Shown: piece by piece, positions 22,577 to 46,085 of the stretch
Layout: each line of letters opens with the position of its first letter
How positions within the stretch are numbered: the stretch's first letter is position 1
From: Candidatus Gastranaerophilales bacterium
GTDB lineage: Bacteria; Cyanobacteriota; Vampirovibrionia; Gastranaerophilales; Gastranaerophilaceae
Direction: 5' to 3'
Length of the DNA stretch: 64,000 nt
Assembly: GCA_017467305.1 (NCBI GenBank)
Contig: JAFTSM010000065.1
Span: forward strand, 1,353-65,352
Notes under the pieces: model-generated
Databases searched by the model: none
Told to the model about the DNA's origin: nothing
What the model saw: the letters and a program-made list of their open reading frames with translations, nothing else
Program-made: the position numbers and the translations under genes

Positions 22577-23566
22577 TTATTTCAACGCATATTTTTGAAT
22601 TATATCTTCAACTTTTGAGTATACGGAGCATTTAATTCCTCTTTTTTTAGCTTCTTCTTTAAAGAGGGTATACATTTCTCCATAGTGTGGTGGGAAAGGT
22701 TTTTCGTCTAAGTTTGTGAATAATGCCCATTTATTATCTATAGTAAATTCAACCATTTTGATGCCAATATCTGACATTAAATCAAAGAATTTAATAATTT
22801 CTTCTTTATTATCATTAAAGTGTTCTACTAGTATGTATTTAACTATAATTGGTGGATTTTCTCTTCCTTTTGAGTATTCTCTCAAATTTTTTACAGAGTC
22901 ATTAAATTTATCAACTCTTTTTAATTTTTTATATGTTTCTGGAGTTCCACAATCTAATGAAGTAAAGAGTAATACTTTATTCAAATCCATTAATTTTTTT
23001 ATGATTGGTTGATAAACAATATTATTTGTTAAAATATGGATTTGTTTTACTCCGTTTTTTAAAAATTCTTTTATCATTTTTTCAAATTCTTTTAAAACAG
23101 AAATATCTCCACCTTGAATTACTGCAACCAATTCTTTTCTATTAAGTAGGTTTTGCTTGTAGAGTTCTTTTAATAGTGGAACAAAATCATAGTATTGGCT
23201 TTTTCCACTTTTGTAGGTTATTTCTCCGTGTGAATCAAACATTCTTGCGCAATAAATACAACCACAATTACATTGAGTCCAATGGCTTACATTTAGCATT
23301 GTGTATTGTTGTGAAATAACATCATTTTCTGTTTTTTCTTTTAAAAAGAAGCAACCTTTACAAGGTGATTTTTCTATATCTTCTTCATTCAATAGTGCAA
23401 ACGCATCTAGTTTTGTTTGTTTGAATTTTTTCCAGTCGATTCTTTTCCCTCTATAAGCTTCTTCATATACTGGACCAATTTGACCAGTACAGCAAGACAT
23501 TATTCTATCGTGGAAACAAGATAAGACATTATTTAATTCATTACAAAAATATTGTTTTTTTGTCAT
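22577..23566 (-). CDS. radical SAM protein, clade A (A1)
   Basis: CX3CX2C = CNCGCIYC. The N-terminal Cys motif is FC...SCC...CKGC. It has IQGGDIS, SLDCGTPETYKKLKRVDKF and VKYILVEHFNDNKEEI. By eye more than half its residues are identical to A6 (28768). Confidence 0.8.
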   Translation of the reverse strand: MTKKQYFCNELNNVLSCFHDRIMSCCTGQIGPVYEEAYRGKRIDWKKFKQTKLDAFALLNEEDIEKSPCKGCFFLKEKTENDVISQQYTMLNVSHWTQCNCGCIYCARMFDSHGEITYKSGKSQYYDFVPLLKELYKQNLLNRKELVAVIQGGDISVLKEFEKMIKEFLKNGVKQIHILTNNIVYQPIIKKLMDLNKVLLFTSLDCGTPETYKKLKRVDKFNDSVKNLREYSKGRENPPIIVKYILVEHFNDNKEEIIKFFDLMSDIGIKMVEFTIDNKWALFTNLDEKPFPPHYGEMYTLFKEEAKKRGIKCSVYSKVEDIIQKYALK

Positions 23567-23573
23567 TTATCCT

Positions 23574-24572
23574 CTATAAATTTAAAACTAGTGCTCTGTC
23601 GTAAAATTCAAAATGAATATTTTCATCTTGGCAGTGTTGTCTTATGTAAATGAGTAAATCTTTTACATATTGTGGGATTTCTCCACATTTATTCACAAAC
23701 CAATGTTCTTCAACGTCTGCAATAAGATATTTAACATCAAGCTTGTTAATACATAAATCAAGCCATTTATCGATTTCTTCTTTGTTATCATTAACATTTG
23801 GAATAATTATGTATTTTACGCCTAAACGTTTAGGGTCAGTTTTGTTTGCTTCTTTTGCATATTTTTTTATTGTTGAACAAACATCTTTAAATTTATCAAC
23901 GCCTTTTATCTTTTTGAACGTTTCTTTTGTACCAGCATCCAAAGAAATTACTATGTTCATATTTTTAATATATTTTGCAGTCATTCTGCTAAAACGTATG
24001 CCGTTTGTGTATAGTGCAAAATTTTTATTACCAGCTTTTGCAAATAAATTTATTATGTCATCAAACTTCTTTAATAAAGTAGGCTCACCCATTGCAAAAG
24101 AAACGTGTGCTTCTGGTTCCTTTTCAAGGTTATATATTTTTTGGTTAAGCATTTCTTTGAATAAAGGAATTATGTCATATGCCTTTGTTGTTCTTTTTTC
24201 TACAATTTCTTGATATGCAAAACAGTAGATACATTTAGAATTGCAATCATTTGAATGACCAACCCATATCATATCAATGTAGTTGTCTAAATCTGATAAA
24301 AATTGATTTTCTGAGTTTTCATCAAATTCTTCAATCCAATGGCAGCCTTTACAAAATGGTGGGATTACTCCTTCACGCATTTCGGAAACTAGTTTGTTTT
24401 TATTTTTAAAAATTTCTTCCCAATTAGCTTTATCTTTTGGTCCTTTATAAGGAACTATATAGTTGTTATTTCTTTCATTTGGTGAATGGATAGACAAATG
24501 ACAATGTCTAAAACAATCATAATGAATATAAAGTCCGTGTGCTAAATATCTGCATCTATACTTTTTTGTCAT
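23574..24572 (-). CDS. radical SAM protein, clade A (A2)
   Basis: CNSKCIYC, MGEPTLL (GGE-type motif), SLDAGTKETFKKIKGVDKF, IIPNVNDNKEEI. Confidence 0.8.
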   Translation of the reverse strand: MTKKYRCRYLAHGLYIHYDCFRHCHLSIHSPNERNNNYIVPYKGPKDKANWEEIFKNKNKLVSEMREGVIPPFCKGCHWIEEFDENSENQFLSDLDNYIDMIWVGHSNDCNSKCIYCFAYQEIVEKRTTKAYDIIPLFKEMLNQKIYNLEKEPEAHVSFAMGEPTLLKKFDDIINLFAKAGNKNFALYTNGIRFSRMTAKYIKNMNIVISLDAGTKETFKKIKGVDKFKDVCSTIKKYAKEANKTDPKRLGVKYIIIPNVNDNKEEIDKWLDLCINKLDVKYLIADVEEHWFVNKCGEIPQYVKDLLIYIRQHCQDENIHFEFYDRALVLNL

Positions 24573-24607
24573 AAAAAACCTCTATCCAAGTATGATTATA
24601 ACATAGT

Positions 24608-25606
24608 TTACTTTGTGGAGAATCCTTGTTCTAAAACTTTTGTTGTATATGGTGGAATACCTAAATCCATATTGTGTTTTCTGCAAGTTTCTTTTGCATA
24701 TTTTACTATGTCGTAATAGTGATTTGGAATTGTAAAACAACCATCAATGATATCTCTGTAATCAATATCTAAAACAATAATTTTAATTCCGATTTCAATC
24801 ATTTTATCCATAAATTTGGTAAATTCATCAATATTATCATTATGACCATTAACTATAATGTATTTTACAATTATCGAATCATTGCCAGCTGCGGCAATAT
24901 ATTTCTTTAGGTTATCAATGGATTTATCAAATTTATCTACTTGTTTTATTCTTTCATAAGTTTCTTTGCATCCAGCATCAAGCGCTGTACAAACTTCACC
25001 CTTTTTCATTTTCAAAAGATTTTCGATAACTGGCATATAAACAATATTGTTTGTAGGAATATAAATTGTTCCAACACCTCTATCTAAAAATGTTTGAATT
25101 ATTTCTTGATGATTTTTTAAGCAAGATATATTTCCACCTTGAAAATCGATGTATAGCTTTTCTTTGTCTATTAGGTCGTTATCGTAAAGCTCATTTATGA
25201 ATTTTAAGACATCATATAGGACTGGTTTGTTTTCATCTTCTTTTATTTTTTCAAAGGTTCTATTCCCTTGTGTACAATAAATACACGCACAATTGCATTG
25301 AGTATAGTGATTTAAAGTGATTTTATTTATTCTAAAATCAGTTGCTTCTTTATATTCTTCTAGGTGAACACAACCTTTGCAACCTTCTGGAATTATTCCA
25401 TTTTTTAAATTTTTAATAAGTTGTTTTTTATTTGAAATAAATTCTTTAATTGAATTTTTTTTAGAAAGTTCACTAACCATTGCTGGGCCAATGTTTGCAC
25501 TACAGCAAGGTTCTAGAGTATCTCTTGATGTAAAATGCAAGTGGTTATTTAGTAATGCACAACTATATGATTTTTTCTTTTTGAAAAATTTTTCTAAAAA
25601 ATTCAT
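24608..25606 (-). CDS. radical SAM protein, clade A (A3)
   Basis: CNCACIYC, FQGGNIS, ALDAGCKETYERIKQVDKF, IVNGHNDNIDEF. Confidence 0.8.
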   Translation of the reverse strand: MNFLEKFFKKKKSYSCALLNNHLHFTSRDTLEPCCSANIGPAMVSELSKKNSIKEFISNKKQLIKNLKNGIIPEGCKGCVHLEEYKEATDFRINKITLNHYTQCNCACIYCTQGNRTFEKIKEDENKPVLYDVLKFINELYDNDLIDKEKLYIDFQGGNISCLKNHQEIIQTFLDRGVGTIYIPTNNIVYMPVIENLLKMKKGEVCTALDAGCKETYERIKQVDKFDKSIDNLKKYIAAAGNDSIIVKYIIVNGHNDNIDEFTKFMDKMIEIGIKIIVLDIDYRDIIDGCFTIPNHYYDIVKYAKETCRKHNMDLGIPPYTTKVLEQGFSTK

Positions 25607-25661: not shown

Positions 25662-26654
25662 ATGCGTAAAAGATATTATTGTAAAAGACTTAATGAAACA
25701 CTAAACTTTGATGCACTTAAAGTATTTTATTGTTGTGCAACAAGAAATGGTCCTTCAATTGATGTTCCAAAACCAGATAAAATAAAAGATATTATAAAAA
25801 GAAGAAATTCTTTAATTAAAATGTTAGATAGAGGAGTGATTCCTCAAGAGTGTGTTGGTTGTTTTGATTTAAAAGAACAAGAAAATCCTAAACCTTTAAT
25901 TATAAGTCAGTTATCAAAGCCACCAAAAGCAAATATGATAATTGTTAAACACTTTAAACAATGTGATTGTAGTTGTGTTTATTGTTGCGAGCAGTACCTT
26001 TCTGAAAGAAAAATTGTTCTAAAATCTAAAAAAAGTGATTATTATGATTTGCTTCCTATAATTGAAGAACTCTATAAACAAGATATTGTTGATAAAAAAG
26101 AATTAGATGTTCATTTTCAGGGTGGTAATGTGTCTGTTCTTGATGAGTTTGATGATTTAGTTAATATCTTTATCAAAAATGGTGTAAAGCGTGTAGAAAT
26201 TGCTACAAATGGTATTAAATATCTTCCTCAAATTGAACAAATATCTAATAAAACTTTTGTTGATGTAAATATTTCTATTGATGCAGGTACAAGAGAAACT
26301 TATAAAAAGATTAAAACTGTTAATAAATTTGAAGACTTAGTTGAAAACTTAAAAAAGTATGCTAAATTACCAATTCTTTTGAGACTCAAATATATTTTGG
26401 TAAGAGGTATTAACGATAATAAAGAAGAACTAGAAAATTATATTAACCTTATGAAGGAAGTTGGTATTACAAATTCTGAACTTATGATTGATCAATGTGA
26501 TAGTGAGTTTCTTCAAAATGGTGAGTTTAAAATACCAGAATATTACTATGAATTATTCTCTTTTTATAAAGAAAAATGTGCTGAACAAGGTATAAAAGCA
26601 ACCATTTGGGAGTATATAGAGGAAATTTTACAAAAAGGTTCATTTTTTAAGTAA
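25662..26654 (+). CDS. radical SAM protein, clade A (A4)
   Basis: CDCSCVYC, FQGGNVS, SIDAGTRETYKKIKTVNKF, LVRGINDNKEEL. Confidence 0.8.
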   Translation: MRKRYYCKRLNETLNFDALKVFYCCATRNGPSIDVPKPDKIKDIIKRRNSLIKMLDRGVIPQECVGCFDLKEQENPKPLIISQLSKPPKANMIIVKHFKQCDCSCVYCCEQYLSERKIVLKSKKSDYYDLLPIIEELYKQDIVDKKELDVHFQGGNVSVLDEFDDLVNIFIKNGVKRVEIATNGIKYLPQIEQISNKTFVDVNISIDAGTRETYKKIKTVNKFEDLVENLKKYAKLPILLRLKYILVRGINDNKEELENYINLMKEVGITNSELMIDQCDSEFLQNGEFKIPEYYYELFSFYKEKCAEQGIKATIWEYIEEILQKGSFFK

Positions 26655-27665
26655 ATCTTTGATTTTTTCAATGAAACTCTTTTTAATTGGTTTTAAGTTT
26701 TTTAAATAGTCATTAACTACGCAACAGTCGTCTTTAAAAATAGGGTCTGATAATAGTTTAACTATATCATTATATTTTGGATGTGTTGGAAGTGAAACAT
26801 CTAATTCATTCATTAGAGAATCAGAGTCTATTTGCCTATGGTAGTTTATAAAAAATGCTTTCGCATCAAGTTTTTTTGCTAGTTGGGCAAATTTTTTCAT
26901 CTCTTTATAGTTAATAGATGTCACTACAAAATTAAGTTGTAATCCATTTAATAAACCTTGTTTTTTTAACTCTGATAAATATTCAACATTTTTTATTAGT
27001 TCTTTGAAATTACCGTGTTCTACAAGTTTATTGTATGTCTTTTCAGTTGCACTATGTATAGAGATAATAACTGTGCTTAGACGTGATTTTAAGTCTAGTT
27101 CTTCTATTCTCTCTTTAGTGAATAAAGTTCCGTTTGAGATTATATTAAACTTAATTTTAGGGTTTATTTTTATGATTTTTCTTACTACGTCTATTGAGTG
27201 TTTACTTGCAAAAAGTTCACCAGCTGAATTCATTTCAACTATTTCAGCTTTTTCTAATATTGGAGTAAATATTCTATCAAAATTTTCTTCAATACGTTTT
27301 TCTTTTGCTCTGTTATATTCTTCTTCTTCTTTGTTTGGTTTTGTTCTGCAAAAAATACAACGGACGTTACAGCGTCTATCGTAACTAAATTCAATTTGCT
27401 TTGGATATTCTGCTGTTAAGTCTTCGTTTATATTTATTTCTTTTTGAAATGGATCACAGACATCTAATTTACAATATTTGAAATTGTTTTCTATAAATTG
27501 TTTTCTAAAAGCTTTTGCTTTTTCTCCATTCCAAATTTCATCAAAAGATTGTTCAAAAATATTTCCAAAAGAATAAAAATCGGTCCAATAACAACAACAA
27601 CAATATACTTCGCCCGTGTTTTGGATTTGTATAGTATGAAATGGATGATTGCAAATTTTACTCAT
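26640..27665 (-). CDS. radical SAM protein, clade B, N-terminal SPASM/twitch-like motif (B1)
   Basis: The N-terminus is CNHPFHTIQIQNTGEVYCCC...SFGNIFEQSFDEIWNGEKAKAFR...YCKLDVC. It is followed by CNVRCIFC (CX3CX2C), NSAGELF and SIHSATEKTYNKLV. Confidence 0.8.
   Translation of the reverse strand: MSKICNHPFHTIQIQNTGEVYCCCCYWTDFYSFGNIFEQSFDEIWNGEKAKAFRKQFIENNFKYCKLDVCDPFQKEININEDLTAEYPKQIEFSYDRRCNVRCIFCRTKPNKEEEEYNRAKEKRIEENFDRIFTPILEKAEIVEMNSAGELFASKHSIDVVRKIIKINPKIKFNIISNGTLFTKERIEELDLKSRLSTVIISIHSATEKTYNKLVEHGNFKELIKNVEYLSELKKQGLLNGLQLNFVVTSINYKEMKKFAQLAKKLDAKAFFINYHRQIDSDSLMNELDVSLPTHPKYNDIVKLLSDPIFKDDCCVVNDYLKNLKPIKKSFIEKIKDLLKK
27511..27585 (-). repeat. near-identical ~60-nt segment shared by B1, B2 and B3 (copy 1)
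   Basis: TTTTGCTTTTTCTCCATTCCAAATTTCATCAAAAGATTGTTCAAAAATATTTCCAAAAGAATA encodes SFGNIFEQSFDEIWNGEKAK. Confidence 0.8.
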
Positions 27666-27742: not shown

Positions 27743-28732
27743 TTGAAATACGTTAGTTGTCAAAATATACAGAATGGGTTGCGATTTGAATATAATGCTA
27801 TAAAACTTTGCTGTTTTATGAGTGGGAACACTCCGGAGCCTTTGTTTATAAAAAAGGATTATTGGGGTGAAAAGCTCGATTGGAAAGAAGTTGTTGATAG
27901 TATATATAAAATCAGAGAAAATCAAAAGAATGGGATAACTCCAGCTGAATGTGTTGGTTGTTTTGGTTTGCAAGAACGTGAATGGGATGATAACCCAAAA
28001 TTTAAATGGATTCAAATAGCGCATTGGTCTGAATGTAATTGTAACTGTACATATTGTTATCGTTTGCAAAGTAATTTTGAAAAGCCTAAAAAACGCTATA
28101 AAATCATGCCAATAATTAAAGAATTAGATAAAATGAATATGCTTGATTACAATGGTGAATTAGCATATTCGGGTGGTGAACCAGCAAGTTTGAGAGAATT
28201 TGATGATATTACAAATTTTTTCCTAAAAAAAGGAATGAGAATTATTATGGTTCACTCTAATGGTATTAAACCAGTAAAATCCGTTTTAAAAGGGCTAAAA
28301 ACAGATACAATGTCTGTAACTGTTAGTGTTGATTGTGGTGATAGACAAAAATTTAAACAAATAAAACAAGTTGATGCTTATAACAAAGTTATGGATACAT
28401 TAAAGAAGTATGTTAAAGCTCAAGGAAATGATAAAACATCTGTTCGTTCAAAATACATTATTATTCCTAGAGTAAATGATACTAAAGAAGATGTAGATAA
28501 ATGGCTTGATGAAACACAAAGAGTTGGAATACAAAAAGTTATTCTGGATTTTGAAGCAGATTGGCTAGAAAGAAATAAACATAACATCCCAGAATATATT
28601 GATGAGTTGTATCAATATATAGTTGATTCAACAAAACAACGAGGAGTTGAATTGCAATTTTATGGTGTAGCTACTCAATATAGAGAAATAAAAAAGCTTA
28701 ATGTTGAGGGCTATGGATTACATCAAGAGTAG
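27743..28732 (+). CDS. radical SAM protein, clade A (A5)
   Basis: TTG start behind AGGAG. CNCNCTYC, SGGEPASL, SVDCGDRQKFKQIKQVDAY, IIPRVNDTKEDV. Confidence 0.8.
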   Translation: MKYVSCQNIQNGLRFEYNAIKLCCFMSGNTPEPLFIKKDYWGEKLDWKEVVDSIYKIRENQKNGITPAECVGCFGLQEREWDDNPKFKWIQIAHWSECNCNCTYCYRLQSNFEKPKKRYKIMPIIKELDKMNMLDYNGELAYSGGEPASLREFDDITNFFLKKGMRIIMVHSNGIKPVKSVLKGLKTDTMSVTVSVDCGDRQKFKQIKQVDAYNKVMDTLKKYVKAQGNDKTSVRSKYIIIPRVNDTKEDVDKWLDETQRVGIQKVILDFEADWLERNKHNIPEYIDELYQYIVDSTKQRGVELQFYGVATQYREIKKLNVEGYGLHQE

Positions 28733-28767: not shown

Positions 28768-29751
28768 ATGTCTGGTGAATTATATTTTTGTGATGAATTA
28801 AATGAAACGTTAACTTGTTATCATGACAAAATAACATCTTGTTGTAGTAATCCAAACGGTCCAATATATTTTGATAAATATGATGGTAGTAAAGTAGATT
28901 TTGAAATTTTAAGACAAAAAAAACTTGAGTTTTTTTCATTGTTTGATGAAGAAAATATCAAAAATTCACCGTGTTATGGTTGTTTTTCCTTAAGAAAAAG
29001 AAAACCTGAGGATGTTATTAATTCTAAATTTAAACAGATTCATGTTTCACATTGGACACATTGTAATTGTGGTTGTATATATTGTGCAAGAATGGATGAT
29101 TCACATGGAAAAATTACCTATAGAAAGGCAAAAAGTGAATATTACGATATGTTGCCTGTTGTAAAACAGTTGTACAAAAAAGATTTATTAGATAGAGAAA
29201 ATCTTATAGTTTGTATACAAGGTGGAGATATCTCTGTATTAAGTGAATTTGAAAAACTTGTAAAGGAGTTTTTTAAGCAAGGTCTTTTAAAATTTCATTT
29301 TCTTTCTAACAATATAATTTATCAACCAATTATTAAAAAATTATTAGATGCAAATAAGGGCACTTTTTGTACTTCTTTAGATTGTGCTAGTAGAGATATT
29401 TACTATAAATTAAAAAGAGTGGATAAATTTGATGAATGTGTAAAAAATTTAAGGAAGTACGCTAAGGGACATTCTCATCCGCCTATTACTGTTAAGTATA
29501 TTGTTATTGAAAATGTAAATGATAACATAATTGAAATGAAAAAATTTTTAGATTTAGTTGTATATATGGGTATAAAAAATGTAGAATTTATGCTAGATAA
29601 TAAATATGTTTTCTGTGACCATTCGAAAGTTAGTATCCCAAAACACTATGGAAACTTATATTTTTTCTTTAAAGAATATTGTGAAATAAGTGGACTAAAG
29701 TTTGTAATATGGGATAAAGTAGAATCTCTGATAAACGAGTATTTATTATAG
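28768..29751 (+). CDS. radical SAM protein, clade A (A6)
   Basis: CNCGCIYC, IQGGDIS, SLDCASRDIYYKLKRVDKF. This is a close paralog of A1. Confidence 0.8.
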   Translation: MSGELYFCDELNETLTCYHDKITSCCSNPNGPIYFDKYDGSKVDFEILRQKKLEFFSLFDEENIKNSPCYGCFSLRKRKPEDVINSKFKQIHVSHWTHCNCGCIYCARMDDSHGKITYRKAKSEYYDMLPVVKQLYKKDLLDRENLIVCIQGGDISVLSEFEKLVKEFFKQGLLKFHFLSNNIIYQPIIKKLLDANKGTFCTSLDCASRDIYYKLKRVDKFDECVKNLRKYAKGHSHPPITVKYIVIENVNDNIIEMKKFLDLVVYMGIKNVEFMLDNKYVFCDHSKVSIPKHYGNLYFFFKEYCEISGLKFVIWDKVESLINEYLL

Positions 29752-29753: not shown

Positions 29754-30797
29754 CTACTTTTTCTTTAATATTTTATCTATAAAACAAAGAAAATTTTTTT
29801 CTTCTTTTAGTGGAAGTATTAATTGGGGATTAATTCTTGGTTCAAAATAACAAACATAAGATGCTAATTCTTTTTTTCTTAGTTGTCTAAGAAAATCTTT
29901 GTATAGTGAATTATCTGGTTCAAAGACAGCTATTTCTTTATATTTTTTTGCAAGAGTTGTATGTTCCCAAGGTTGGTAACAAGTATAGCTAACTGAGATG
30001 TTTAGTTTTTTTGCAATATTTGCCATTTTTGCCATTTCTTTATAATTGTATTTAGAGATAACCATAGTAATAGTAACTGATTCAATATTGCCTTTTTCTT
30101 TTTCTTTTGCAATGAATTTTAAAATTTTCATAACAGCAGAAAAATTACCTTTGCAAACGATTTTATTATATGTTTTTTCAGTTGCACCAGGAATTGAAAT
30201 TCTTATATCTTTAATTTTTCCTCTTAAATTTAATTTTTCATATAATTCTTTAGTCAACAATATTCCGTTAGTATCTATCTCAAATAATATATTGGGATGA
30301 ATATTAGTAACATAATTTATAAGATTAATTCCATTCTTGCTTGCAAAAACATCTCCTGAAGTACTTAATTCAATTATTTCTACATCATCAAGTAATGGGA
30401 TGATTTTTTCTGTTATTTCTTTTTGTTTGTCAGAAAAAGCTAGCTTTATTTCGTCTCTACAAGTTTTACAAGCAACATTGCAAACAGTATCGTATGCTAA
30501 TTTTAAATATTTACAAGATTTATCATTTTCCCAATGTTTGAGAATGTCTTCTTTATTTCTTTTATTTTAATATGTACATATATCTAAATTACATAAAGAA
30601 TAGTCATTGTTTAGAATTTTTTCTCTAAAGTCATTTGCTTTTTTTGAATGCCATACTTCTTGAAAGTTATTTTCTAGTAAATTTCCAAAAGAGTAAAAAT
30701 CTACAAATCGTGGGCAACAAGGATAAACATTTCCATCGTCAGAAATTTCAGCCATATAAAACGGTAAATAGCAGACTTTATCGTTTGTAGAGTTCAC
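29754..30797 (-). pseudogene. clade B radical SAM gene interrupted by one in-frame TAA (codon 77)
   Basis: The track fragments 30567-30797 (N-terminal SPASM-like part) and 29754-30260 (C-terminal part) are in the same frame (1044 nt = 348 codons). My reverse-strand translation across 30261-30566 is open and reads ...DKSCKYLKLAYDTVCNVACKTCRDE...STSGDVFASK.... The only stop is TAA at 30567-30569. Confidence 0.75.
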
Positions 30798-33888: not shown

Positions 33889-33939
33889 AAAACCTCCGTA
33901 TGTAAAAGTGTATAATAAAATAGCCAATTTAGTCTAATT

Positions 33940-36538: not shown

Positions 36539-36573
36539 ATTTTTTATATTTGAAATATTTCTCTGAGGTTTTT

Positions 36574-37583: not shown

Positions 37584-38570
37584 GTGCAAAATTTATATTG
37601 TAGTAATTTATTAAATTGTTTAAGTTTTCACCAAAAGAATGTAAGATTTTGTACTACTTTGCAACTTGGTGAAATTATTTCAACTTATCAAGAAAAACCT
37701 AAAGAATTAGCACAAAGAATAATAGAAATAAGAGAAAATATAAACAAGCAACTTGCACAATGTATTATTCCGAATGGATGCGAAAATTGTATTTATCGTA
37801 ATCAAGAAGATTATAAAACAGTAAAAATAAGAAGAATAGATTTGTATTATTGGTATCACTGTAATTGTGGCTGTTTTTATTGTTCATATAGGGATGAAAC
37901 AAAGGGGGAATTTTCTGATAAGGTAAAAGAAGGTAATCCTTTAATCTATAAAACATTGGAAGAATTATATAAAAAGGATTTAATTGATAAAAATAATCTT
38001 TTTGTTAATTTTGGTGGTGGTGAGTTAGGCGTGTTAAAAGAATATCCCAAATTGGTGAACTTATTTTTAAAAAATAATGTTCAAAATATTTGGTGTGAAA
38101 CTTCTGGAATTAGATATTCTAAGGAGTTGGCAAAGGCTTTAGAAAAAGGTAAGGCGGGATTATCGATAGCTATATGTAGTGGCTCAAGAGAAACTTATAA
38201 AAAAATAAAAAAGAGAGATAAGTACGAACAAGTTTTAAAAAATTTAAAAAATTATGTAAAGGCTGCTAAAAAATTTAAACAAGATCAAAATAATGATTGT
38301 CGCGTTATTTCTAAATATATTATTTTACAAGGATTTAATAATAATAAAGATGAAATTGACAAATGGTTATTGGCGTCTAAAAGTATAGGTATAAAATCTG
38401 TTGAAATAAGTATGGAATTTTGTTGGGGAATTCATACAAAAAAAGGTCAGAAAGTTGAAGATTACAACTATGAATTGTTTGAATATACAGAACAAAGATG
38501 TCTTGAACTTGGCTTGAATTTAAGAAAAAATGATACATCTATGGCTATTATGGAGCAAGGAACTTATTAA
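37584..38570 (+). CDS. radical SAM protein, clade A (A11)
   Basis: GTG start 2 nt after the A10 stop. CNCGCFYC, GGGELGVL, ICSGSRETYKKIKKRDKY. Confidence 0.75.
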   Translation: MQNLYCSNLLNCLSFHQKNVRFCTTLQLGEIISTYQEKPKELAQRIIEIRENINKQLAQCIIPNGCENCIYRNQEDYKTVKIRRIDLYYWYHCNCGCFYCSYRDETKGEFSDKVKEGNPLIYKTLEELYKKDLIDKNNLFVNFGGGELGVLKEYPKLVNLFLKNNVQNIWCETSGIRYSKELAKALEKGKAGLSIAICSGSRETYKKIKKRDKYEQVLKNLKNYVKAAKKFKQDQNNDCRVISKYIILQGFNNNKDEIDKWLLASKSIGIKSVEISMEFCWGIHTKKGQKVEDYNYELFEYTEQRCLELGLNLRKNDTSMAIMEQGTY

Positions 38571-39558
38571 TTTTAAATAATTTTTCAAAAATATTTTTAT
38601 GTTTTAATTTTAGAAGATTTTGGTTTATAGAAACAAAATCTTCTTTAAAAATGGGGTGTTGTAATATTTTAATAAATTTATTATGGTTTCTATGTTCTGG
38701 ATTTATTACATTGATTTCATTGTAGATTTTATCTGGTATTTCATATTTTATTAAATTTAAAAAAACTACGTTTGCGCCAGAACTTTTGGCTATTTGGGCA
38801 AAGTTAACCATTTCTTTATAGTTATAGTCTGTTATTACTGCTCTAAATTGAAGAATATTAATTAAACCTTCTTGCTTTAGTTTTATTGCATAATTTATAT
38901 TTTCCATTACTGTATCAAAATTACTATTTTTAACAATTTTATTGTAAGAATTTTTATTAAAGGTATGAAAAGAAATCCCAACGAGATTTAGTTTTTCTTT
39001 AATACCAAGTTCTATTAAATTTTTTTCATTGAAAAGTAAACCATTTGTAAGTATGTCAAATTTGATATTGGGGTATGTCTTTGCAATTTTTTTTATCAAA
39101 TTTCTGGAATGTAAACTTGCAAATGCTTCTCCTGCTGATGCTATATTTACGTTTTTAACATCTTTAAATAAATCAGAAACCTTATCTTCAATGATTTTGA
39201 ATGGTTCCAAATATTTTTGATTATTATTTGGTTTGCAAAAAATACAGTTAACATTGCAAGTTCTATCATATCCTAAAAGAACTGATGCTGGTCGTTTGTG
39301 AACAATTGGTTCTATTCTAATTGAATCATCATTAGATCTATGCGGCAAACAAATATTGAGTTTACAATATTTGAAATTTTTATCTGTAAACTGTTTTCTA
39401 AAGTTTAAAGCTTTTTCTCCATTCCAAATTTCAGAAAAATTTTTTTCTAAAATGTTACCAAAAGAATAGTTTGAACAATATGTTGTACAACAAGGGTGTA
39501 CGTCTCCATAATCATCTATATTTGCACACGTATATGGTAATTCGCAGTATAAGTCCAT
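38548..39558 (-). CDS. radical SAM protein, clade B (B4)
   Basis: The start is moved to the ATG at 39558 (MDLYCELPYTC...) by analogy with the other B N-termini. YSFGNILEKNFSEIWNGEKALNFR. CNVNCIFC. Confidence 0.75.
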   Translation of the reverse strand: MDLYCELPYTCANIDDYGDVHPCCTTYCSNYSFGNILEKNFSEIWNGEKALNFRKQFTDKNFKYCKLNICLPHRSNDDSIRIEPIVHKRPASVLLGYDRTCNVNCIFCKPNNNQKYLEPFKIIEDKVSDLFKDVKNVNIASAGEAFASLHSRNLIKKIAKTYPNIKFDILTNGLLFNEKNLIELGIKEKLNLVGISFHTFNKNSYNKIVKNSNFDTVMENINYAIKLKQEGLINILQFRAVITDYNYKEMVNFAQIAKSSGANVVFLNLIKYEIPDKIYNEINVINPEHRNHNKFIKILQHPIFKEDFVSINQNLLKLKHKNIFEKLFKINKFLAP

Positions 39559-39626
39559 ACCACTAATTATATGGAAAATATTGTTATTAATCAAATTAAA
39601 AGTTATAATTAGTCGGTGGAGATTTA

Positions 39627-40529
39627 ATGTTTAAAATTTTATTCAAAAAAAAGTTAAAATATTTAGTCATTGGAGCAGGTTCAACTGGTGCGACTTTTGC
39701 TTGTTTTTTACATTCTGCAGGAAAAGATGTAACGCTTCTTTCTAAGTATGATGATATAGTAAATAATGCAAAAGAAAAGGGGGGCATTAAGTTAATTTCT
39801 AGTGTAAAAGGAAAGAAAAGATACAATATAAAAATTAAAACTGAAAAAACTTATAAAGAAAAAGCTGATGTGATAATTCTTTGTATTAGAACGCCTGATA
39901 TTCTATCTGCAATTCCTTTTATTAAAAAAGTTTCGCATAAAAAAACAATTGTTACATCAATTGCAAATGGCTTTGGAATTGCGTATGCCTTAAAAAAGGC
40001 ACTTCCTAAACTTTTGATTTTAGATTCTAATTTTGTAGGTAAATGCCGATGGTATAATCGTAAGGATGTAGAGTATTTACAGCAAAGAGAATATTGTGAG
40101 TTCAATTTTGCAGACAAATATAATTTAATCGATAAAAAAACTTTAAAACAAATAGAAATAGACTTTACTGATGCAGGCATGAATACTACTATGATGTCTG
40201 AAAAACAATTTACAGAAGTTGCGTTTGAACGATTAATAACTCGTTCTCCTTTTGAGGCTACATGTATTTATTATGATATATGTGCACATGATTTTATCGG
40301 TGAAAAATTAGATACGTTTAAAATTCTTTGTAATGAACTATTAATTCTTGCAAAGGCTATGAATATAAATGTTAGAGAAAATTTTTTAGAAGAATATTAT
40401 CAAAATTTTGAACTATATAAAGAACGTGATGATGCAAATGTATATTCATCAATTTTAAATGATATGAAAATTGAACAATGTTCAGAAATAGATTTTCTAT
40501 TTTTTATTGTTGTTGAACTTGCAAAATAA
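39627..40529 (+). CDS. ketopantoate reductase (ApbA/PanE)-like NAD(P)-dependent oxidoreductase
   Basis: The N-terminal Rossmann motif is YLVIGAGSTGATFACFLHSAGKDVTLL. Length ~300 aa and two-domain layout fit the 2-dehydropantoate 2-reductase family. It is the only non-radical-SAM gene in the array. Confidence 0.6.
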   Translation: MFKILFKKKLKYLVIGAGSTGATFACFLHSAGKDVTLLSKYDDIVNNAKEKGGIKLISSVKGKKRYNIKIKTEKTYKEKADVIILCIRTPDILSAIPFIKKVSHKKTIVTSIANGFGIAYALKKALPKLLILDSNFVGKCRWYNRKDVEYLQQREYCEFNFADKYNLIDKKTLKQIEIDFTDAGMNTTMMSEKQFTEVAFERLITRSPFEATCIYYDICAHDFIGEKLDTFKILCNELLILAKAMNINVRENFLEEYYQNFELYKERDDANVYSSILNDMKIEQCSEIDFLFFIVVELAK

Positions 40530-40648: not shown

Positions 40649-41689
40649 TTATGACCAGCCGTATTTTTTGTAGAAGTTTATCTTGTTTTTTATAACATCT
40701 GCAAATGAATTTGGTCTTAGGTGTTTAAATCCATCGTTAATTAAGAAATCATCATTATGTTTTATTAATGGATTATTCATTATCTTAACAAAATTATTAT
40801 ATTCTGGGTGTGTAGGATTTGTTATTATATATTTATCTAGTTGACTAAGAAATTTTGTACCTTGTCCCATATCTTTTGCAATCATTACGTGGACATATGC
40901 ACCCAGTTCTTTTGCAAATTTAGTTAGTGGTATTAAATCTTTATAGTTTAGTGATGTTAAAACACAATTAATTGTTAATTTCTTGATTTTTTCTTGTTTT
41001 CTTAATTGTGATACATATTCAAGATTTTTCATAACACTCTTAAAATTGCCATTTCTAACAATTTTGTTATATGTTTCTTCAATACAAGATGGTATGGATA
41101 TCCTTATATCAACAATTTTATCTGCTATTCCTAATTTTTTGAGATTTTCTTCACTACATAAAATTCCGTTTGTTATGAGCGCAAATTTTATATTTGGATA
41201 TACTTCTGCAATTCTTTTTATTAACTTTTTTGAGTGTTCACTTATAAATACTTCTCCAGCGACATTTACTGTTACTAATTTTGCGTTTTTTAACATTGGA
41301 ATTAATACAGGTTCAATAAGTGCATCCCACTTTGCTTGGTCTTCTTTTGACATAATGTGGGGTTCATCTCTGCAGTATACACATTGTTGAACACAAGTAT
41401 TGTCATAACATAAACTTACCTCTTCTGGATATTCAGCTATAGATGTTTCAATTGGTTTACAAGTTTGTATTAAACATAAGTTAGTATCACAATATTTATA
41501 ATTTTTATCTATTATTGATTGTCTGAATTCTCTTGCTTTTTGTCCATTCCAAACTTCTTCGAAACTTTGCTCTAGTATATTTCCGATACAGTAACTGTCA
41601 TTCCATAATCTTGAGCAAAAATAGCAAAAACCATCTGTCCCGATTTCAAAAAAAATGTATGGTTTAACACAAAATCTATTCTCTGACAT
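40649..41689 (-). CDS. radical SAM protein, clade B (B5)
   Basis: FCVKPYIFFEIGTDGFCYFC...CIGNILEQSFEEVWNGQKAREFR, CVQQCVYC, VAGEVF, SIPSCIEETYNKIV. Confidence 0.8.
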   Translation of the reverse strand: MSENRFCVKPYIFFEIGTDGFCYFCSRLWNDSYCIGNILEQSFEEVWNGQKAREFRQSIIDKNYKYCDTNLCLIQTCKPIETSIAEYPEEVSLCYDNTCVQQCVYCRDEPHIMSKEDQAKWDALIEPVLIPMLKNAKLVTVNVAGEVFISEHSKKLIKRIAEVYPNIKFALITNGILCSEENLKKLGIADKIVDIRISIPSCIEETYNKIVRNGNFKSVMKNLEYVSQLRKQEKIKKLTINCVLTSLNYKDLIPLTKFAKELGAYVHVMIAKDMGQGTKFLSQLDKYIITNPTHPEYNNFVKIMNNPLIKHNDDFLINDGFKHLRPNSFADVIKNKINFYKKYGWS

Positions 41690-41790: not shown

Positions 41791-42885
41791 ATGAGTAGAG
41801 ATTTGTTTTGTAAAAATCCTTGGAATTGTTTAGAGTTAAATAATGATGGAAAGTGTTTTTTTTGTAACCCTTGTTTTTCTAATTTTAATTTGATTGGGAA
41901 TATTTTTGAAGATGATATAGATGAAATTTGGAATGGTGAAAAAGCTCAAAATTTCAGAAAGGATGTTTTGGAAAAGAAATATTCTTTTTGTAACTACGAA
42001 AATTGTAATGGTAATAAAGCCTCAGAGATTCCTTATAATGAACTTATTGCACCATATCCGGAATATATTAATATTGGTTATGATTATACTTGTGGGCAAC
42101 GTTGTATTATATGTAGAGATGATTATCAAGCGTTATCAGAAGATGAGTGCAAAAAATGGGAAGATAAACTTGAAACGCACATTCTTCCAATAACTTCTCA
42201 AGCAAAATATATGTTTGTAAACTGTCGTGGTGAATTTTTCGATAGCAAACATACGCAAAAAATGGTTTCTTCTATTTTGAGTAATAACCCTAGTATTAGA
42301 GTTGATTTTATTTCTAATGGAATAAAGTGTACTGAAGAAAATTTAAAGAAGCATGGATTGTTTGATAAAATATTTAAAATTCATATTTCATTACATGCTG
42401 CATCAAAAGAAACATATAAACGTATTTTTAGAACAGACAAATTTGATTCTGTTATGGAAAATGTTCGATATATTAGTTCTTTAAAAAAAGAAGGAAAAAT
42501 AGATGAGTTTGAAATAATGTTTGTTATAACAGATGCTAACTATAAAGATATGCCATCATTTGTTAAATTAGCAGAAGAACTTGATGCAAAAGCAGCTTTC
42601 TCTGCTTGTATAGGTGGATATGCTTCTTATATTATGAACCGTGAAGAGTATGCGGTATTTTATCAAAATCATCATAATTATAATAACTTTGTTAAAATGC
42701 TGAAAAATCCAATTTTTAATTCTTCTCATTGTTGGTTGCCAGATTATTTGCGTGAGTTAAAGCCAGTTAGCTTTATTCAATCATTTAAAAACAAGCTGAG
42801 ATACTTTGCTCGTACGAAGTTAAATATGAAAATTAAACAGACAAAAGGAAATATTCAAATATTTTCTCATGATACTTATAAGTGA
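41791..42885 (+). CDS. radical SAM protein, clade B (B6)
   Basis: FCKNPWNCLELNNDGKCFFC...LIGNIFEDDIDEIWNGEKAQNFR, CGQRCIIC, CRGEFF, SLHAASKETYKRIF. Confidence 0.8.
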   Translation: MSRDLFCKNPWNCLELNNDGKCFFCNPCFSNFNLIGNIFEDDIDEIWNGEKAQNFRKDVLEKKYSFCNYENCNGNKASEIPYNELIAPYPEYINIGYDYTCGQRCIICRDDYQALSEDECKKWEDKLETHILPITSQAKYMFVNCRGEFFDSKHTQKMVSSILSNNPSIRVDFISNGIKCTEENLKKHGLFDKIFKIHISLHAASKETYKRIFRTDKFDSVMENVRYISSLKKEGKIDEFEIMFVITDANYKDMPSFVKLAEELDAKAAFSACIGGYASYIMNREEYAVFYQNHHNYNNFVKMLKNPIFNSSHCWLPDYLRELKPVSFIQSFKNKLRYFARTKLNMKIKQTKGNIQIFSHDTYK

Positions 42886-42891: not shown

Positions 42892-43911
42892 TTATTCGTA
42901 ATAGCAGAGTCCCAGCTTTTTGTATACATACTCAATATTTGGGAAGAAAATGTGTGAAAGATTTTCTTCTCTGGCTTTCATTTTGTAGAAATCAGCAAGT
43001 TCAATCAAATGTCTTAATAAGCTTTCATCGTAGTTCATTTCATTAAGTAATTGATTATAAACATTAAGTGCAACTTGTGTTGCGCCATTTCTTTTAGATT
43101 GTTTAATAAATTCTTCAATTTCTTTTTTTGAATCGTTTACGCCTGGAACAATAACATATTTTGTGCAAAGTCTCATTGAATAATCTTTTGTTCTCGCTTT
43201 TGAGTAATTTTTGAAGTTTTTCCAAACTTTATCGAAAGATTTTACTCTTTTTACTTTTTCGTGACACTTCTTTGTTCCTGCGTCGATTGAAATCATAAGA
43301 GTTACAGCGTTTTCTCTTACTCCTCTTTCAATAGCTTTAGAATATTGAATATTGTTAGAGTGAATAATTATATTTTTAAAACCGTTGTCTAACAAAAAGT
43401 TTAAAAGCTTGTCGAATTTTGGGTAGAGAGTTGGTTCCCCACCTGCAAAATCAAGTTCTGCATTTTCAGAAAGAACATTGTTTTTAATCATGTCTTTTAT
43501 TATTTCGAGCATATCATAAGGTTCTACGTACTCTTTATAAAAATTTTTGTAGTTTGGTGACAGCGGAGATCTTGGGTTTACGTGACCTAAACAGTATATG
43601 CAGTTAGAATTACATACTTGCCAAGGCGATAAAAGAACATAGTGGATTTTTCTGTCATCTGCATAATCTTCATCTGTAATTAATTGACAATTTTTACATT
43701 CATTTCTTTCACAAGAATTTTTGATTTTTTCTATTTCTTTTGCTCTTTCGTCAAAAAATCTTTTCCAATCGATTTTTTTACCATCAAAAACATCATTGGA
43801 TATTTTAGGCCAGCCTATACCATTATTTGCATTAGTAAGTGTGCAATACGTGATTCCAATATCTTTTCCATTAAAACAAATAGATGTATTAAGATTGTCG
43901 CAAATTCTCAT
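42892..43911 (-). CDS. radical SAM protein, clade A (A12)
   Basis: CNSNCIYC, AGGEPTLY, SIDAGTKKCHEKVKRVKSF, IVPGVNDSKKEI. Confidence 0.8.
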   Translation of the reverse strand: MRICDNLNTSICFNGKDIGITYCTLTNANNGIGWPKISNDVFDGKKIDWKRFFDERAKEIEKIKNSCERNECKNCQLITDEDYADDRKIHYVLLSPWQVCNSNCIYCLGHVNPRSPLSPNYKNFYKEYVEPYDMLEIIKDMIKNNVLSENAELDFAGGEPTLYPKFDKLLNFLLDNGFKNIIIHSNNIQYSKAIERGVRENAVTLMISIDAGTKKCHEKVKRVKSFDKVWKNFKNYSKARTKDYSMRLCTKYVIVPGVNDSKKEIEEFIKQSKRNGATQVALNVYNQLLNEMNYDESLLRHLIELADFYKMKAREENLSHIFFPNIEYVYKKLGLCYYE

Positions 43912-43979
43912 GTAGAATAAATCCCCCTTGAAGCATTATAACATAGTATGTTAAAATTTCTCTGTGTAGAGGAAACAAA

Positions 43980-44957
43980 ATGAAGTTTAAATGTTGTGAA
44001 TGGGCTTTGGCTCATCTTGTTATAAATTCTGATGATTTAACGTATTGTTGTGCGTCTTTTGATAAAAAACTTACTTTCAAGGAAAATTATCACGGTGAAC
44101 TTATTGATATAGATGAATATATAAAAAATAGAGAATTATTTATTGAACAATGCAAACAAGGTAATTTCCCAGAAGTATGTAAAGATTGTCCTACTTTAGA
44201 AGAACGTGATTGGGATGAAACACCAGGTTTTATTGACGTTTCTGTCTCTAATAGGACTAAATGTAGTTGTAATTGCACATATTGTATTATTTCTAGTGGT
44301 GGAAGAGAAGATGTTAAAAAAGATTTAAACACAAGACAAACTTATGATGTTCGCCCTCTTTTAAATCAGTTTCGTGAAAAAAATATGTTTAAGCCAAATT
44401 GCCATTTTATTATTGGCGGTGGTGAGTGCGCAGAATATCCTAAAGGCGAACTTAAATGGCTTGTTGATTTTGTTTTTGAACAAAAGGGTTCTATTGAATT
44501 TTTAAGTGCTGGTATTAAATTTTCTGATGATATTAAAAATGCCTTAAGAAAAGGTAAATCTAAATTAAAGGTTTCTGTTGATGCTGGTACTAAAAAGGTA
44601 TATGAACAAGTTAAACGAGTAAAAGGATATGATGCTGTTTGGAAAAATTTGAAAAAATACATTGAAGCTTCAAAGAAAAATCCTAATGCAGAGGTGACTA
44701 TTAAATATATTATTATTCCTAATGTGAATGATAATATGACCGAAGCCACAGAGTTTATAAAAAGATGTAATAAAATTGGATGTACAAGAATTGAAGTTAA
44801 TGTTGAATTCTTTTGGATGAATGAAAATTGGGATAAACCAATTTCTGATAATTTAAGAGAAGTGTTATTGTATTTTCAAAGTCAGTCTAATTTATGTTTT
44901 TCTTCAAATATTTCTTCTCATGTGCGAAATTGGTTAGAAAAGAATTTGGTGAAATAA
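43980..44957 (+). CDS. radical SAM protein, clade A (A13)
   Basis: MKFKCC..., CSCNCTYC, IGGGECA, SVDAGTKKVYEQVKRVKGY, IIPNVNDNMTEA. Confidence 0.8.
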   Translation: MKFKCCEWALAHLVINSDDLTYCCASFDKKLTFKENYHGELIDIDEYIKNRELFIEQCKQGNFPEVCKDCPTLEERDWDETPGFIDVSVSNRTKCSCNCTYCIISSGGREDVKKDLNTRQTYDVRPLLNQFREKNMFKPNCHFIIGGGECAEYPKGELKWLVDFVFEQKGSIEFLSAGIKFSDDIKNALRKGKSKLKVSVDAGTKKVYEQVKRVKGYDAVWKNLKKYIEASKKNPNAEVTIKYIIIPNVNDNMTEATEFIKRCNKIGCTRIEVNVEFFWMNENWDKPISDNLREVLLYFQSQSNLCFSSNISSHVRNWLEKNLVK

Positions 44958-46085
44958 ATGCAAAATCAACAGAATCAAAGTAATAAAAGTAATAAAAGAA
45001 AAAGTTGTCATATTCTAAGACATGGGATGTGTTTTTTTGGTCAATATATTTCATCTTGCTGCTTTTCACCAGTTGACCAAATAGATAATCAAACGCCACC
45101 TCTTTTGTGTGATTTGACTGGTGGTGAAAGTTATTCTACAGATTTATTATTTGAAAGAATAGAACAATATGAAAAACAATTTAGTGAGGGTGGTTGTCCA
45201 AGAGAATGTGCAAACTGCTATCATATAGAAGAAAAAGATTGGTCTGATGACGATAAAAAAGGCAAATATATTGATTACATAACTATTACTCATTTTACAA
45301 AGTGTAGTGCAAATTGTATTTATTGTTCAAATAATAATACGTTGCAAGAACGTAAAAATAATACTTATAAAATAGTTCCTATATTAAATGATTTAAAGGA
45401 AAAAGGATTAATTAAAAAACATTGTGAGTTGCATATCGGTGGTGGTGAGTTTACAATTTATGATGAGTGTGATGAACTTTTAAATTCATATGCGGTTAAC
45501 GATTTTGCAAGGGTTTTTGTACCAACTAATGCTATTAAATATTCAGAAACTTTATTTCAAGCAATGGATAAAGCAACGACTTATATAATTGTTTCTTTAG
45601 ATTGTGGTAGCAGAAAGTTATATAAGCGTATTAAACGTGTTGATGCCTTTGATAAGGTAATTGAAAATCTAACAATGTATGCTAAAACAAAAAAATCACA
45701 AGATGCTATTAGATTGAAGTATATTATCTTACCTACAGTTAATGACAGTATATGTGAATTTAAAAAATTCTTAAGAGTTGCGAAAAAACTTAAAGTTCAA
45801 AATCTGATTATTGATATTGATGCAAGATATGCAAGAATGAATAATTGGAAAATTGATGATTTTTATATTAATCTAGCAAAAAAAATGAATAATATTGCTA
45901 TAAAACAAGGTTTTATAACTGAATTTTACTCATTCTTTTTTCAATGTGAAAAAGGGACAACAGTAAAAACTTATAATTTGATTGAGGACTTTATCGAAAG
46001 TCTAAAATTTAAATATTTCAATAAAGATTCGGAGAAAATAATTTCTTTATATAAGAATGAGAAAGTCTTTTTTAATTCAAAATAA
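44958..46085 (+). CDS. radical SAM protein, clade A (A14)
   Basis: The ATG directly abuts the A13 TAA. CSANCIYC, IGGGEFT, SLDCGSRKLYKRIKRVDAF, ILPTVNDS. Confidence 0.8.
   Translation: MQNQQNQSNKSNKRKSCHILRHGMCFFGQYISSCCFSPVDQIDNQTPPLLCDLTGGESYSTDLLFERIEQYEKQFSEGGCPRECANCYHIEEKDWSDDDKKGKYIDYITITHFTKCSANCIYCSNNNTLQERKNNTYKIVPILNDLKEKGLIKKHCELHIGGGEFTIYDECDELLNSYAVNDFARVFVPTNAIKYSETLFQAMDKATTYIIVSLDCGSRKLYKRIKRVDAFDKVIENLTMYAKTKKSQDAIRLKYIILPTVNDSICEFKKFLRVAKKLKVQNLIIDIDARYARMNNWKIDDFYINLAKKMNNIAIKQGFITEFYSFFFQCEKGTTVKTYNLIEDFIESLKFKYFNKDSEKIISLYKNEKVFFNSK

Follow-up and report, generated by a model that had tools for sequence, protein, structure and literature searches.

A conserved array of radical SAM genes with a permuted domain layout in Gastranaerophilales, and a tentative link to envelope glycans

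Described relatives and the architecture of the array enzymes

The radical S-adenosylmethionine (SAM) enzymes that act on sugars are to our knowledge few, each with an unusual chemistry: BtrN, DesII, AprD4, BlsE and NeoN. BtrN, the 2-deoxy-scyllo-inosamine dehydrogenase of the butirosin pathway (PDB 4M7S/4M7T), is the founding radical SAM enzyme with a twitch domain, and DesII, BlsE and AprD4 act on nucleotide- or nucleoside-linked sugars. Here we compare with these enzymes an array of 21 paralogous radical SAM genes and one embedded reductase gene (g01–g22) at positions 22577–46085 of a 64,000-nucleotide stretch (the window) of contig JAFTSM010000065.1, from the metagenome-assembled genome (MAG) of a Candidatus Gastranaerophilales bacterium (GCA_017467305.1). 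A radical SAM tailoring enzyme in a carbohydrate pathway is an already known type of system; what appear to be new are the permuted architecture of the proteins, a paralog array so large and so well conserved, and the fact that, in the genomes sampled, it is confined to an uncultured gut lineage. Full-text literature searches found no description of the array family, of radical SAM enzymes with an N-terminal twitch domain, or of radical SAM arrays in Melainabacteria/Gastranaerophilales, and public records name the array proteins merely 'radical SAM protein' or 'SPASM domain-containing protein'.

The 22 genes stand back to back with both strands mixed, as read from the open reading frame (ORF) listing and translations, and comprise 14 clade A radical SAM genes, six intact clade B genes, one interrupted clade B gene (g08) and a gene for an ApbA/PanE-type reductase (g17). 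A CX3CX2C motif is present in all 20 intact radical SAM copies and in g08. Clade A products are 325–375 amino acid residues long with the exception of g13 (473 residues), and the intact clade B products have 341–364 residues. Intergenic gaps within the array are at most 119 nt, and five adjoining pairs of genes overlap. The first-pass annotation of this DNA, made from the letters alone, had listed 22 consecutive genes including 21 for radical SAM proteins, the same product sizes, and packing too tight for precursor peptide genes; the ORF listing agrees on each point, the motifs being exactly as listed and the 21 consisting of 20 intact genes plus g08 with its TAA codon.

On the evidence of motifs, profiles and predicted structures, the array proteins are genuine radical SAM enzymes with a permuted layout, in which the auxiliary domain (putative in clade A) comes first, and they lie outside any characterised family. 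First, PF04055 is matched above its gathering threshold by every intact protein, 14 of clade A and six of clade B (for example g01 at 49.1 bits and g05 at 48.4 bits; cut-off 29.5), and the CX3CX2C motif is invariant in alignments of 60 and 50 sequences. Secondly, motifs, PF04055 and AlphaFold2 (AF2) models of g04 (clade A) and g05 (clade B), with mean confidence scores (pLDDT) of 91.7 and 90.0, agree on a canonical SAM-binding partial (beta/alpha)6 TIM barrel, the fold assumed in the first-pass annotation. Foldseek matched these models to radical SAM structures only, with 90 (g04) and 70 (g05) matches at E ≤ 1e-3 and TM-scores of about 0.45–0.52; the top matches are BlsE, pyruvate formate-lyase activating enzyme (PFL-AE), SuiB, SkfB and DesII for clade A, and viperin, NifB, SuiB, BlsE and DesII for clade B. 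No close structure emerged from PDB sequence and Foldseek searches (TM-score at most 0.52). Thirdly, no NCBIfam model approaches its curated cut-off, in keeping with the earlier proposal of one radical SAM scaffold in two clades without a characterised family. Assignment to a family by hidden Markov models (HMMs) was rejected, the Pfam, NCBIfam and PADLOC matches being either at superfamily level or under cut-off. The activase model PFLA (TIGR02493), for example, is matched at E 2e-12 at best (g01, 23.9 bits against a cut-off of 231.75), and no gene for a glycyl-radical enzyme was found in the window or in the array loci of other genomes.

In both clades an N-terminal domain of approximately residues 1–70 precedes the CX3CX2C motif, which lies at about residues 93–125. 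For clade B, sequence comparison shows this domain to be homologous to the twitch domain that holds the auxiliary [4Fe-4S] cluster of BtrN: the N-terminal 70 residues align to BtrN 164–234 in a PDB profile search (E 1e-12), and each of the six intact clade B proteins has an N-terminal match to PF13186 (SPASM; best E 2e-15). When the two clade profiles are compared by hhalign, N-terminal domain and barrel align in the same order (probability 97.8%), and in the g04 model the N-terminus folds as strands at residues 5–34 followed by a helix at 38–56. The clade A N-terminus has no PF13186 match, and because the domain alone has no PDB match by sequence search the 'twitch' label for clade A is an inference; we regard its four-Cys domain as a putative twitch-type auxiliary domain. 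The invariant cysteines of clade A are C7, C24, C64 and C67 (g04 numbering) together with those of the CX3CX2C motif, and in clade B they are C23, C65, C99, C103 and C106. A motif S-x-D-x-G-x-x-E-T-Y-x-K-I-K runs across clade A, while clade B keeps the T-Y-x-K-[IL] part alone; the earlier statement that an S-[LIV]-D-[AC]-G motif is shared by all the genes thus holds for clade A and not for clade B.

BtrN resembles the array enzymes in that its twitch domain is homologous to the clade B N-terminus and in the four-Cys pattern of a single auxiliary cluster; its carbohydrate-like substrate and DegT-family partner (general knowledge) add to the likeness, since DegT genes also stand beside the arrays of relatives. 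The differences are nevertheless considerable. The BtrN twitch domain is C-terminal to the core whereas the corresponding domain of the array enzymes is N-terminal, the core match to BtrN is only 14 bits, BtrN is not among the 50 Foldseek matches listed for each model, and the clade A N-terminal domain alone has no sequence match to BtrN, which is moreover a single-copy gene in an antibiotic cluster rather than a member of an array of about 20 paralogs. The NCBIfam model NF033640 (N_Twi_rSAM) is closer in layout, with a colinear architecture that places the auxiliary domain before the radical SAM core. Of the NCBIfam subfamily models with the better scores it is the sole one named for a twitch-domain architecture, with matches to all six intact clade B proteins (the best listed being g05, E 6e-16, 58.5 bits) and to 5 of the 14 clade A proteins (best E 3e-12). 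As its cut-off of 170 bits lies far above the 58.5 bits of g05, the highest clade B score listed, these proteins are relatives of that group and not members of it. BlsE and DesII rank high in the structural matches of both clades, and AprD4/AprD3, a radical SAM dehydratase with an NAD(P)H reductase (the mechanism is general knowledge), offers a parallel to the ApbA-like reductase embedded in the array or fused to its relatives. However, the BlsE and DesII matches have TM-scores of 0.46–0.50 with sequence identities of 8–19%, the BlsE and AprD4 NCBIfam models are not matched above noise by the array proteins, and DesII, BlsE and AprD4 have no N-terminal auxiliary domain and do not occur in multi-paralog arrays.

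Age, conservation and spread of the array

As judged by sequence comparison across genomes, the array is a stable, lineage-wide gene cluster under strong purifying selection and is not peculiar to its source genome. One genome per GTDB species (185,579 species genomes) was surveyed with a four-sequence alignment as query, and 185 relatives were found, of which the best 73 loci all belong to uncultured gut MAGs of the Gastranaerophilales/Vampirovibrionia type; the titles of several read just 'bacterium' or 'uncultured bacterium', and those of others, probably wrongly, 'Muribaculaceae'. An HMM search of the six-frame ORFs of these loci found up to 17 copies per 21-kb locus. Copies per genome number at least 6–24, these being lower bounds, and three genomes equal or exceed the 21 copies of the window, so that the comparable arrays sought in the first-pass annotation do occur in other Gastranaerophilales, with at least 20–24 copies, and the array is not singular. 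In public data more widely, the clade A profile matches at least 1,275 clusters (at 50% identity) at E ≤ 1e-30.

Nearly every paralog in the window has 1:1 orthologs at 65–92% identity by best-hit mapping, and a core order and orientation are common to at least 20 species: g03< g04> g05< g06> g09< g10< g11< g12> g13< g02> g01> ... g20<. dN/dS against the best ortholog is approximately 0.02–0.12, with dS saturated. Identities between paralogs, at 24–53% within clade A and 31–42% within clade B, are far under those between orthologs. Because the paralogs are old and have 1:1 orthologs in conserved order in at least 20 species, the array is a stable lineage-wide cluster, with every copy maintained, and not a recent burst in situ. 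The first-pass annotation had proposed massive in-situ diversification, which is not supported, the duplications being old (25–53% identity) with 1:1 orthologs in at least 20 species-level MAGs, and a gene-conversion tract, of which none is detectable. The most similar paralogs, g01 and g07, share 53% protein identity and their longest matching DNA arms are 73–74% identical; recent duplication or gene conversion was considered and ruled out, there being no DNA repeat above about 74% identity over 150–255 nt.

The position of g01 and g02 sets the window apart. In five other loci (L005, L029, L030, L036 and L041) g02 and g01 follow g13 on the plus strand of the core, whereas in the window they are inverted at the left end (22577–24572) beside a tRNA-Ser gene, and the block of DegT, cupin and B12-binding radical SAM genes found at other arrays is missing. 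As g01 and g02 are inverted beside the tRNA gene, the block seems to have been moved or rearranged in the source genome, as far as gene order indicates. None of the window's flanking genes was found beside arrays in other genomes. We also considered a mobile island, and mobility is unsupported: the flanks differ from those of other arrays, and no integrase or transposase domain occurs in the flanking ORFs scanned (about 13.9–22.4 kb and 46.2–59.6 kb).

Eight loci titled 'uncultured Muribaculaceae bacterium' (L006, L033, L035, L038, L039, L058, L063 and L066) carry arrays of the Gastranaerophilales type, that of L006 including a g04 ortholog 82% identical to the copy in the window; these bins are probably mislabelled or contaminated.

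Gene neighbourhoods and candidate substrates

Within the array block of the window no transporter, protease, carrier, glycyl-radical enzyme or kinase gene was found. The earlier observation that partner genes are absent therefore stands for this window; it fails for most related genomes, in which sugar-nucleotide, glycosyltransferase and membrane-protein genes flank the arrays or are interleaved with them. In relatives the left flank of the core is conserved and consists of genes for a family 2 glycosyltransferase (GT2), a DegT/LegC-type aminotransferase, a WbuC-like cupin and a B12-binding radical SAM protein. The GT2 gives weak matches to AglJ, PpgS and ArnC (polyprenyl-phosphate sugar transferases), and the B12-binding protein resembles BchE, HpnJ and 'lipid biosynthesis B12-binding/radical SAM protein'. 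Interleaved in the arrays of relatives are genes for GDP-mannose 4,6-dehydratase (Gmd), GT2 proteins, an ApbA-like reductase of the g17 family and another small radical SAM protein, together with proteins of about 310 residues that have one transmembrane segment and weak SGNH/GDSL similarity (E 7e-8), and polytopic membrane proteins of about 550–800 residues with 8–11 transmembrane segments, the longest three of which contain TPR repeats. A compact version of the array has four radical SAM genes (called genes, 330–479 residues) set between DegT, a TPR membrane protein, GT2, Gmd and membrane proteins; by size and order they are g12, g13, g02 and g01, and the one queried is 75% identical to g01. 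A sugar-pathway gene is present in 23 of 53 array loci as against none of 20 single-copy loci, in a set of loci that is neither independent nor complete.

Distant relatives have neighbourhoods of a similar kind. The long matches of the clade A profile include two-unit fusions from other organisms, one clearly of high GC content, and the three two-unit relatives with readable neighbourhoods all lie in polysaccharide loci. One (P0328) adjoins genes for an NTP_transferase, an NDP-sugar dehydratase, an FkbM methyltransferase, a GT1, a GHMP kinase/NTP_transferase and IspD; the second (P0391) a GT2, an epimerase and a Wzm/Wzt-like ABC2_membrane/ABC_tran pair; and the third (P0268) a GT9 and a methyltransferase. 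With its high GC content, P0268 suggests that the family reaches further than the Gastranaerophilales.

Our leading, though tentative, reading, to which we give slightly less than an even chance, is that the array encodes a set of radical enzymes that tailor a glycan of the envelope or the activated sugars from which it is built. The candidate targets would be the O-antigen of lipopolysaccharide, a capsule or another envelope polysaccharide, or sugars activated by a nucleotide or polyprenyl phosphate. The reading is supported by the radical SAM fold, the N-terminal domain and the conservation of all copies, by the sugar-nucleotide, glycosyltransferase and membrane-protein genes around the arrays of relatives, by the polysaccharide loci of the distant relatives and by the ApbA-like reductase that is fused to a radical SAM unit in P0286; the neighbourhoods also strengthen the earlier idea of a substrate that is not a peptide, for instance a surface glycan. 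We suppose that the radical SAM cluster would cleave SAM to give a 5'-deoxyadenosyl radical, which would abstract hydrogen at a specific C-H position of the sugar, while the N-terminal auxiliary cluster might take up the second electron or anchor the substrate, as in BtrN-type dehydrogenases. The product could be a keto, deoxy, epimerised or C-C/C-branched sugar; keto intermediates might then be processed by the embedded ApbA-like reductase, following the logic of AprD4/AprD3, and in other genomes by the DegT aminotransferase, following that of BtrN/BtrS. This putative sugar chemistry is drawn by analogy with these two enzyme pairs. The approximately 20 paralogs are ancient and conserved one by one, so that each is likely to serve a site or reaction of its own, and gene content that varies between species (at least 6–24 copies) could give a species-specific decoration of the glycan.

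Several observations weigh against a glycan substrate. The adjoining GT2 is the sole glycan gene of the window, DegT, the cupin, the B12-binding radical SAM gene and Gmd being absent from its 64 kb, and the array loci compared above have the limits stated there. The polytopic membrane proteins and the SGNH-like proteins of relatives have no significant Pfam or PDB match. No member of clade A or clade B has a characterised homolog, and similarity to BlsE, DesII and BtrN is no stronger than that to PFL-AE, SuiB, NifB, viperin and MoaA. Singletons at four loci (L025, L027, L028 and L054) stand in purely housekeeping neighbourhoods, as do two distant relatives (P0393 and P0395) and a mini-array that includes an ApbA-like reductase fused to a g15-like radical SAM unit (P0286; L082 10001–12007) and has no glycan neighbours. 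One further relative (P0317; L083 10001–12292) joins a radical SAM unit and a MatE transporter in one gene, a fusion as compatible with a small-molecule product as with a glycan.

Three side observations belong with these loci. The singleton of L025, L027, L028 and L054 (for example L028 9923–10981) is a clade A paralog that is well conserved and shares about 40% identity with g04; it lies in a fixed neighbourhood of PFOR (pyruvate:ferredoxin oxidoreductase), TrpB and TrpA (read from translations), an alpha/beta hydrolase, TpiA and PyrF, and may be an ancestral or differently employed member of the family. A further long relative (P0247) has an N-terminal region that is methyltransferase-like by eye only, followed by two radical SAM units; the P0286, P0317 and P0247 fusions are possible Rosetta-stone links, and gene-calling artefacts may account for them. 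Lastly, a type I restriction-modification S subunit is encoded at 1369–2586 of L018 (MAG BRZ_CG_bin87), approximately 6 kb upstream of the array and 2.7 kb from the GT2/DegT flank, and nothing comparable occurs in the window.

An alternative that we consider improbable, although the best placed of the rivals, is a battery of enzymes that make or modify small molecules or nucleotides, with a diffusible metabolite (a modified nucleoside or nucleotide as with viperins, or an aminocyclitol-like compound) used in defence, antagonism or signalling. The MatE exporter fusion and the ApbA-fusion mini-array in its housekeeping context are in its favour, and the combination of a twitch radical SAM enzyme with DegT mirrors BtrN/BtrS of 2-deoxystreptamine synthesis (general knowledge). 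Viperin is also the top Foldseek match of clade B, and viperin models give weak partial matches (NF038283, E 1e-14; PADLOC pVip, E 8e-15); however, the NF038283 score is 54 bits against a cut-off of 180, and the matches cover only the generic core, about 130–170 of 257–262 profile positions (for pVip approximately positions 7–167 of 257). Viperins have no auxiliary Fe-S domain, and the stable synteny and 1:1 orthology of the array across at least 20 species are unlike those of defence islands and defence genes. No nucleotide kinase or other defence gene is present in the array, and the neighbours are of polymer type, namely GT2 and, beside one distant relative, the Wzm/Wzt-like ABC genes.

Quite unlikely, in our view, is that these are peptide or protein maturases, of the kind that act on ribosomally synthesised and post-translationally modified peptides (RiPPs) or of a protein-modifying radical SAM/SPASM type, with substrates encoded elsewhere in the genome. 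Clade B does have the Pfam SPASM domain in common with maturases such as anSME, AlbA, SkfB, PqqE and MftC, there are weak NCBIfam matches to maturases of the sactipeptide, mycofactocin, HxsC and anSME types, and the best structural matches of clade A include SuiB and SkfB. Every maturase model is far under its cut-off, however, and the domain order is reversed: the SPASM domain has seven cysteines for two clusters and lies at the C-terminus, whereas the auxiliary domain of the array enzymes is N-terminal and has four, for one cluster. No PqqD or RiPP recognition element (RRE) domain has a Pfam match in any copy. Neither a precursor-sized ORF nor a protease or peptide exporter gene was seen in the window, and the same holds for the recurrent neighbours of the array loci (ORFs of at least 120 codons) and for two loci with called genes.

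As for tailoring of lipids (membrane lipids, the acyl chains of lipid A or polyprenyl carriers, by C-C bond formation, methylation or cyclisation), which has precedents in Tes/GDGT-MAS, HpnJ and ladderane-type radical SAM enzymes, we think it similarly remote, for the weak clade A matches to Tes (NF045702, E 4e-12) and GDGT-MAS (PDB 7tol, E 1e-8) are no better than those to MoaA, TYW1 and PFL-AE, and although the adjoining B12-binding protein of relatives has the lipid-type resemblances given above, genes for fatty acids, isoprenoids or lipid A are not adjacent and the neighbours are sugar-nucleotide enzymes. The probability left over by these four readings we give to none of them.

Gene inventory, flanks and significance of the array

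As stated in the first-pass annotation, a GT2 gene and tRNA-Ser lie directly to the left of the array. The GT2 (21518–22396, plus strand; PF00535, E 5e-33) is EpsE/TuaG-like, with NCBIfam matches to EpsE and TuaG that are under cut-off, and no ortholog of it was found beside the arrays of other genomes. The tRNA-Ser(TGA) gene (22443–22529, plus strand; ARAGORN, Rfam RF00005) is followed by a terminator-like hairpin at 22536–22558 from the terminator scan.

The left part of the array begins with three clade A genes on the minus strand: g01 (22577–23566; 329 residues; CNCGCIYC), g02 (23574–24572; 332 residues; CNSKCIYC) and g03 (24608–25606; 332 residues; CNCACIYC), whose orthologs are 62–74%, 71–80% and 71–79% identical, respectively; g03 opens the conserved core order. 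To their right are the two modelled genes, g04 (clade A; 25662–26654, plus; 330 residues; CDCSCVYC), with orthologs of up to 85% identity and in 24 loci, and g05 (clade B; 26640–27665, minus; 341 residues; CNVRCIFC), in which Pfam places SPASM at residues 5–66 and Radical_SAM at 97–262. Two clade A genes on the plus strand follow, g06 (27743–28732; 329 residues; CNCNCTYC) and g07 (28768–29751; 327 residues; CNCGCIYC); the nearest paralog of g07 is g01, and the MAG SIG29 alone has a g07 ortholog at 60% identity or more.

The interrupted clade B gene g08 (about 29754–30803, minus; CNVACKTC) has one in-frame TAA at 30567–30569 and is otherwise full length in a single frame. Its SIG29 ortholog is intact (371 residues; L001 14551–15663), and tblastn aligns the two at 73% identity over 346 residues in one frame with one stop; the TAA could mean that the gene became a pseudogene recently, or it could be a mistake in the sequencing or assembly of the MAG.

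Continuing rightwards, g09 (clade B; 30797–31864; 355 residues; CDVKCIFC), g10 (clade A; 31854–32837; 327 residues; CQLDCVYC) and g11 (clade B; 32887–33927; 346 residues; CNVKCIFC) are all on the minus strand, and g10 is the most conserved paralog, with orthologs of up to 92% identity and a dN/dS of 0.02. The clade A gene g12 (33972–35003, plus; 343 residues; CNAACFYC) overlaps the longest copy, g13 (clade A; 35000–36421, minus; 473 residues; CNSRCVYC), which has a C-terminal extension of about 140 residues. Counterparts of g13 elsewhere are stop-to-stop ORFs of 456–480 codons, so the extension is conserved; its approximately 140 residues (35000–35420) contain no recognised domain. Next are g14 (36487–37581; 364 residues; CNCGCCYC) and g15 (37584–38570; 328 residues; CNCGCFYC), both clade A and on the plus strand, and g16 (clade B; 38548–39594, minus; 348 residues; CNVNCIFC).

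The reductase gene g17 (39627–40529, plus) encodes a putative NAD(P)-dependent enzyme of the ApbA/PanE family, with the Pfam domains ApbA and ApbA_C and a score of 91 bits against TIGR00745 (cut-off 141); it has orthologs within arrays at nine other loci at 73–79% identity, plus one at 53%. To its right are two clade B genes, g18 (40649–41689, minus; 346 residues; CVQQCVYC) and g19 (41791–42885, plus; 364 residues; CGQRCIIC), and then three of clade A, g20 (42892–43911, minus; 339 residues; CNSNCIYC), g21 (43980–44957, plus; 325 residues; CSCNCTYC) and g22 (44958–46085, plus; 375 residues; CSANCIYC). The last of these is the least conserved copy, its best ortholog found being 57% identical.

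Signals for switching or regulation did not emerge. With respect to phase variation by simple repeats, 8 of 20 A/T runs lie in the array, which makes up 37% of the window, none is longer than 8 nt and there is no enrichment; no tandem repeats occur within the array. The Rfam scan for regulatory RNAs and riboswitches found only the tRNA, and the promoter and terminator scan gave counts at chance level for AT-rich DNA.

The remainder of the window encodes ordinary chromosomal functions and secreted-looking proteins without known role. An ORF of 572 residues at 47702–49420, 1.6 kb 3' of the array, has no Pfam match and no ortholog beside the arrays of other genomes; it contains a near-perfect (Thr-Ala-Ser)n tract near its N-terminus (DNA 47797–47958) and a Cys-rich C-terminal tail. 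The right flank also includes genes for a CHASE2-GGDEF diguanylate cyclase (55277–57148) and an SLH-domain protein (57579–59603), both ordinary for a diderm of the Gastranaerophilales group and neither linked to the array.

Even without the glycan link, the array is among the densest clusters of radical SAM paralogs known to us, and should the link fail, its substrate would still be a question worth solving in an experimentally tractable system. If the link is true, the array would be a major unexplained envelope feature of a widespread uncultured gut lineage, a panel of enzymes with presumably differing regio- and chemoselectivities for enzymologists, and a marker locus for strain and serotype diversity. 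We further speculate, with rather less confidence than in the glycan reading itself, that the Gastranaerophilales and, more thinly, some other anaerobes possess a dedicated radical SAM toolkit of enzymes with an N-terminal twitch domain for serial, distinct, oxygen-independent C-H functionalisations of one envelope glycan or its precursors. If so, this toolkit would diversify glycans by a route not recognised before and would comprise at least 20 new radical carbohydrate chemistries per genome and more than 1,000 sequence clusters in total.

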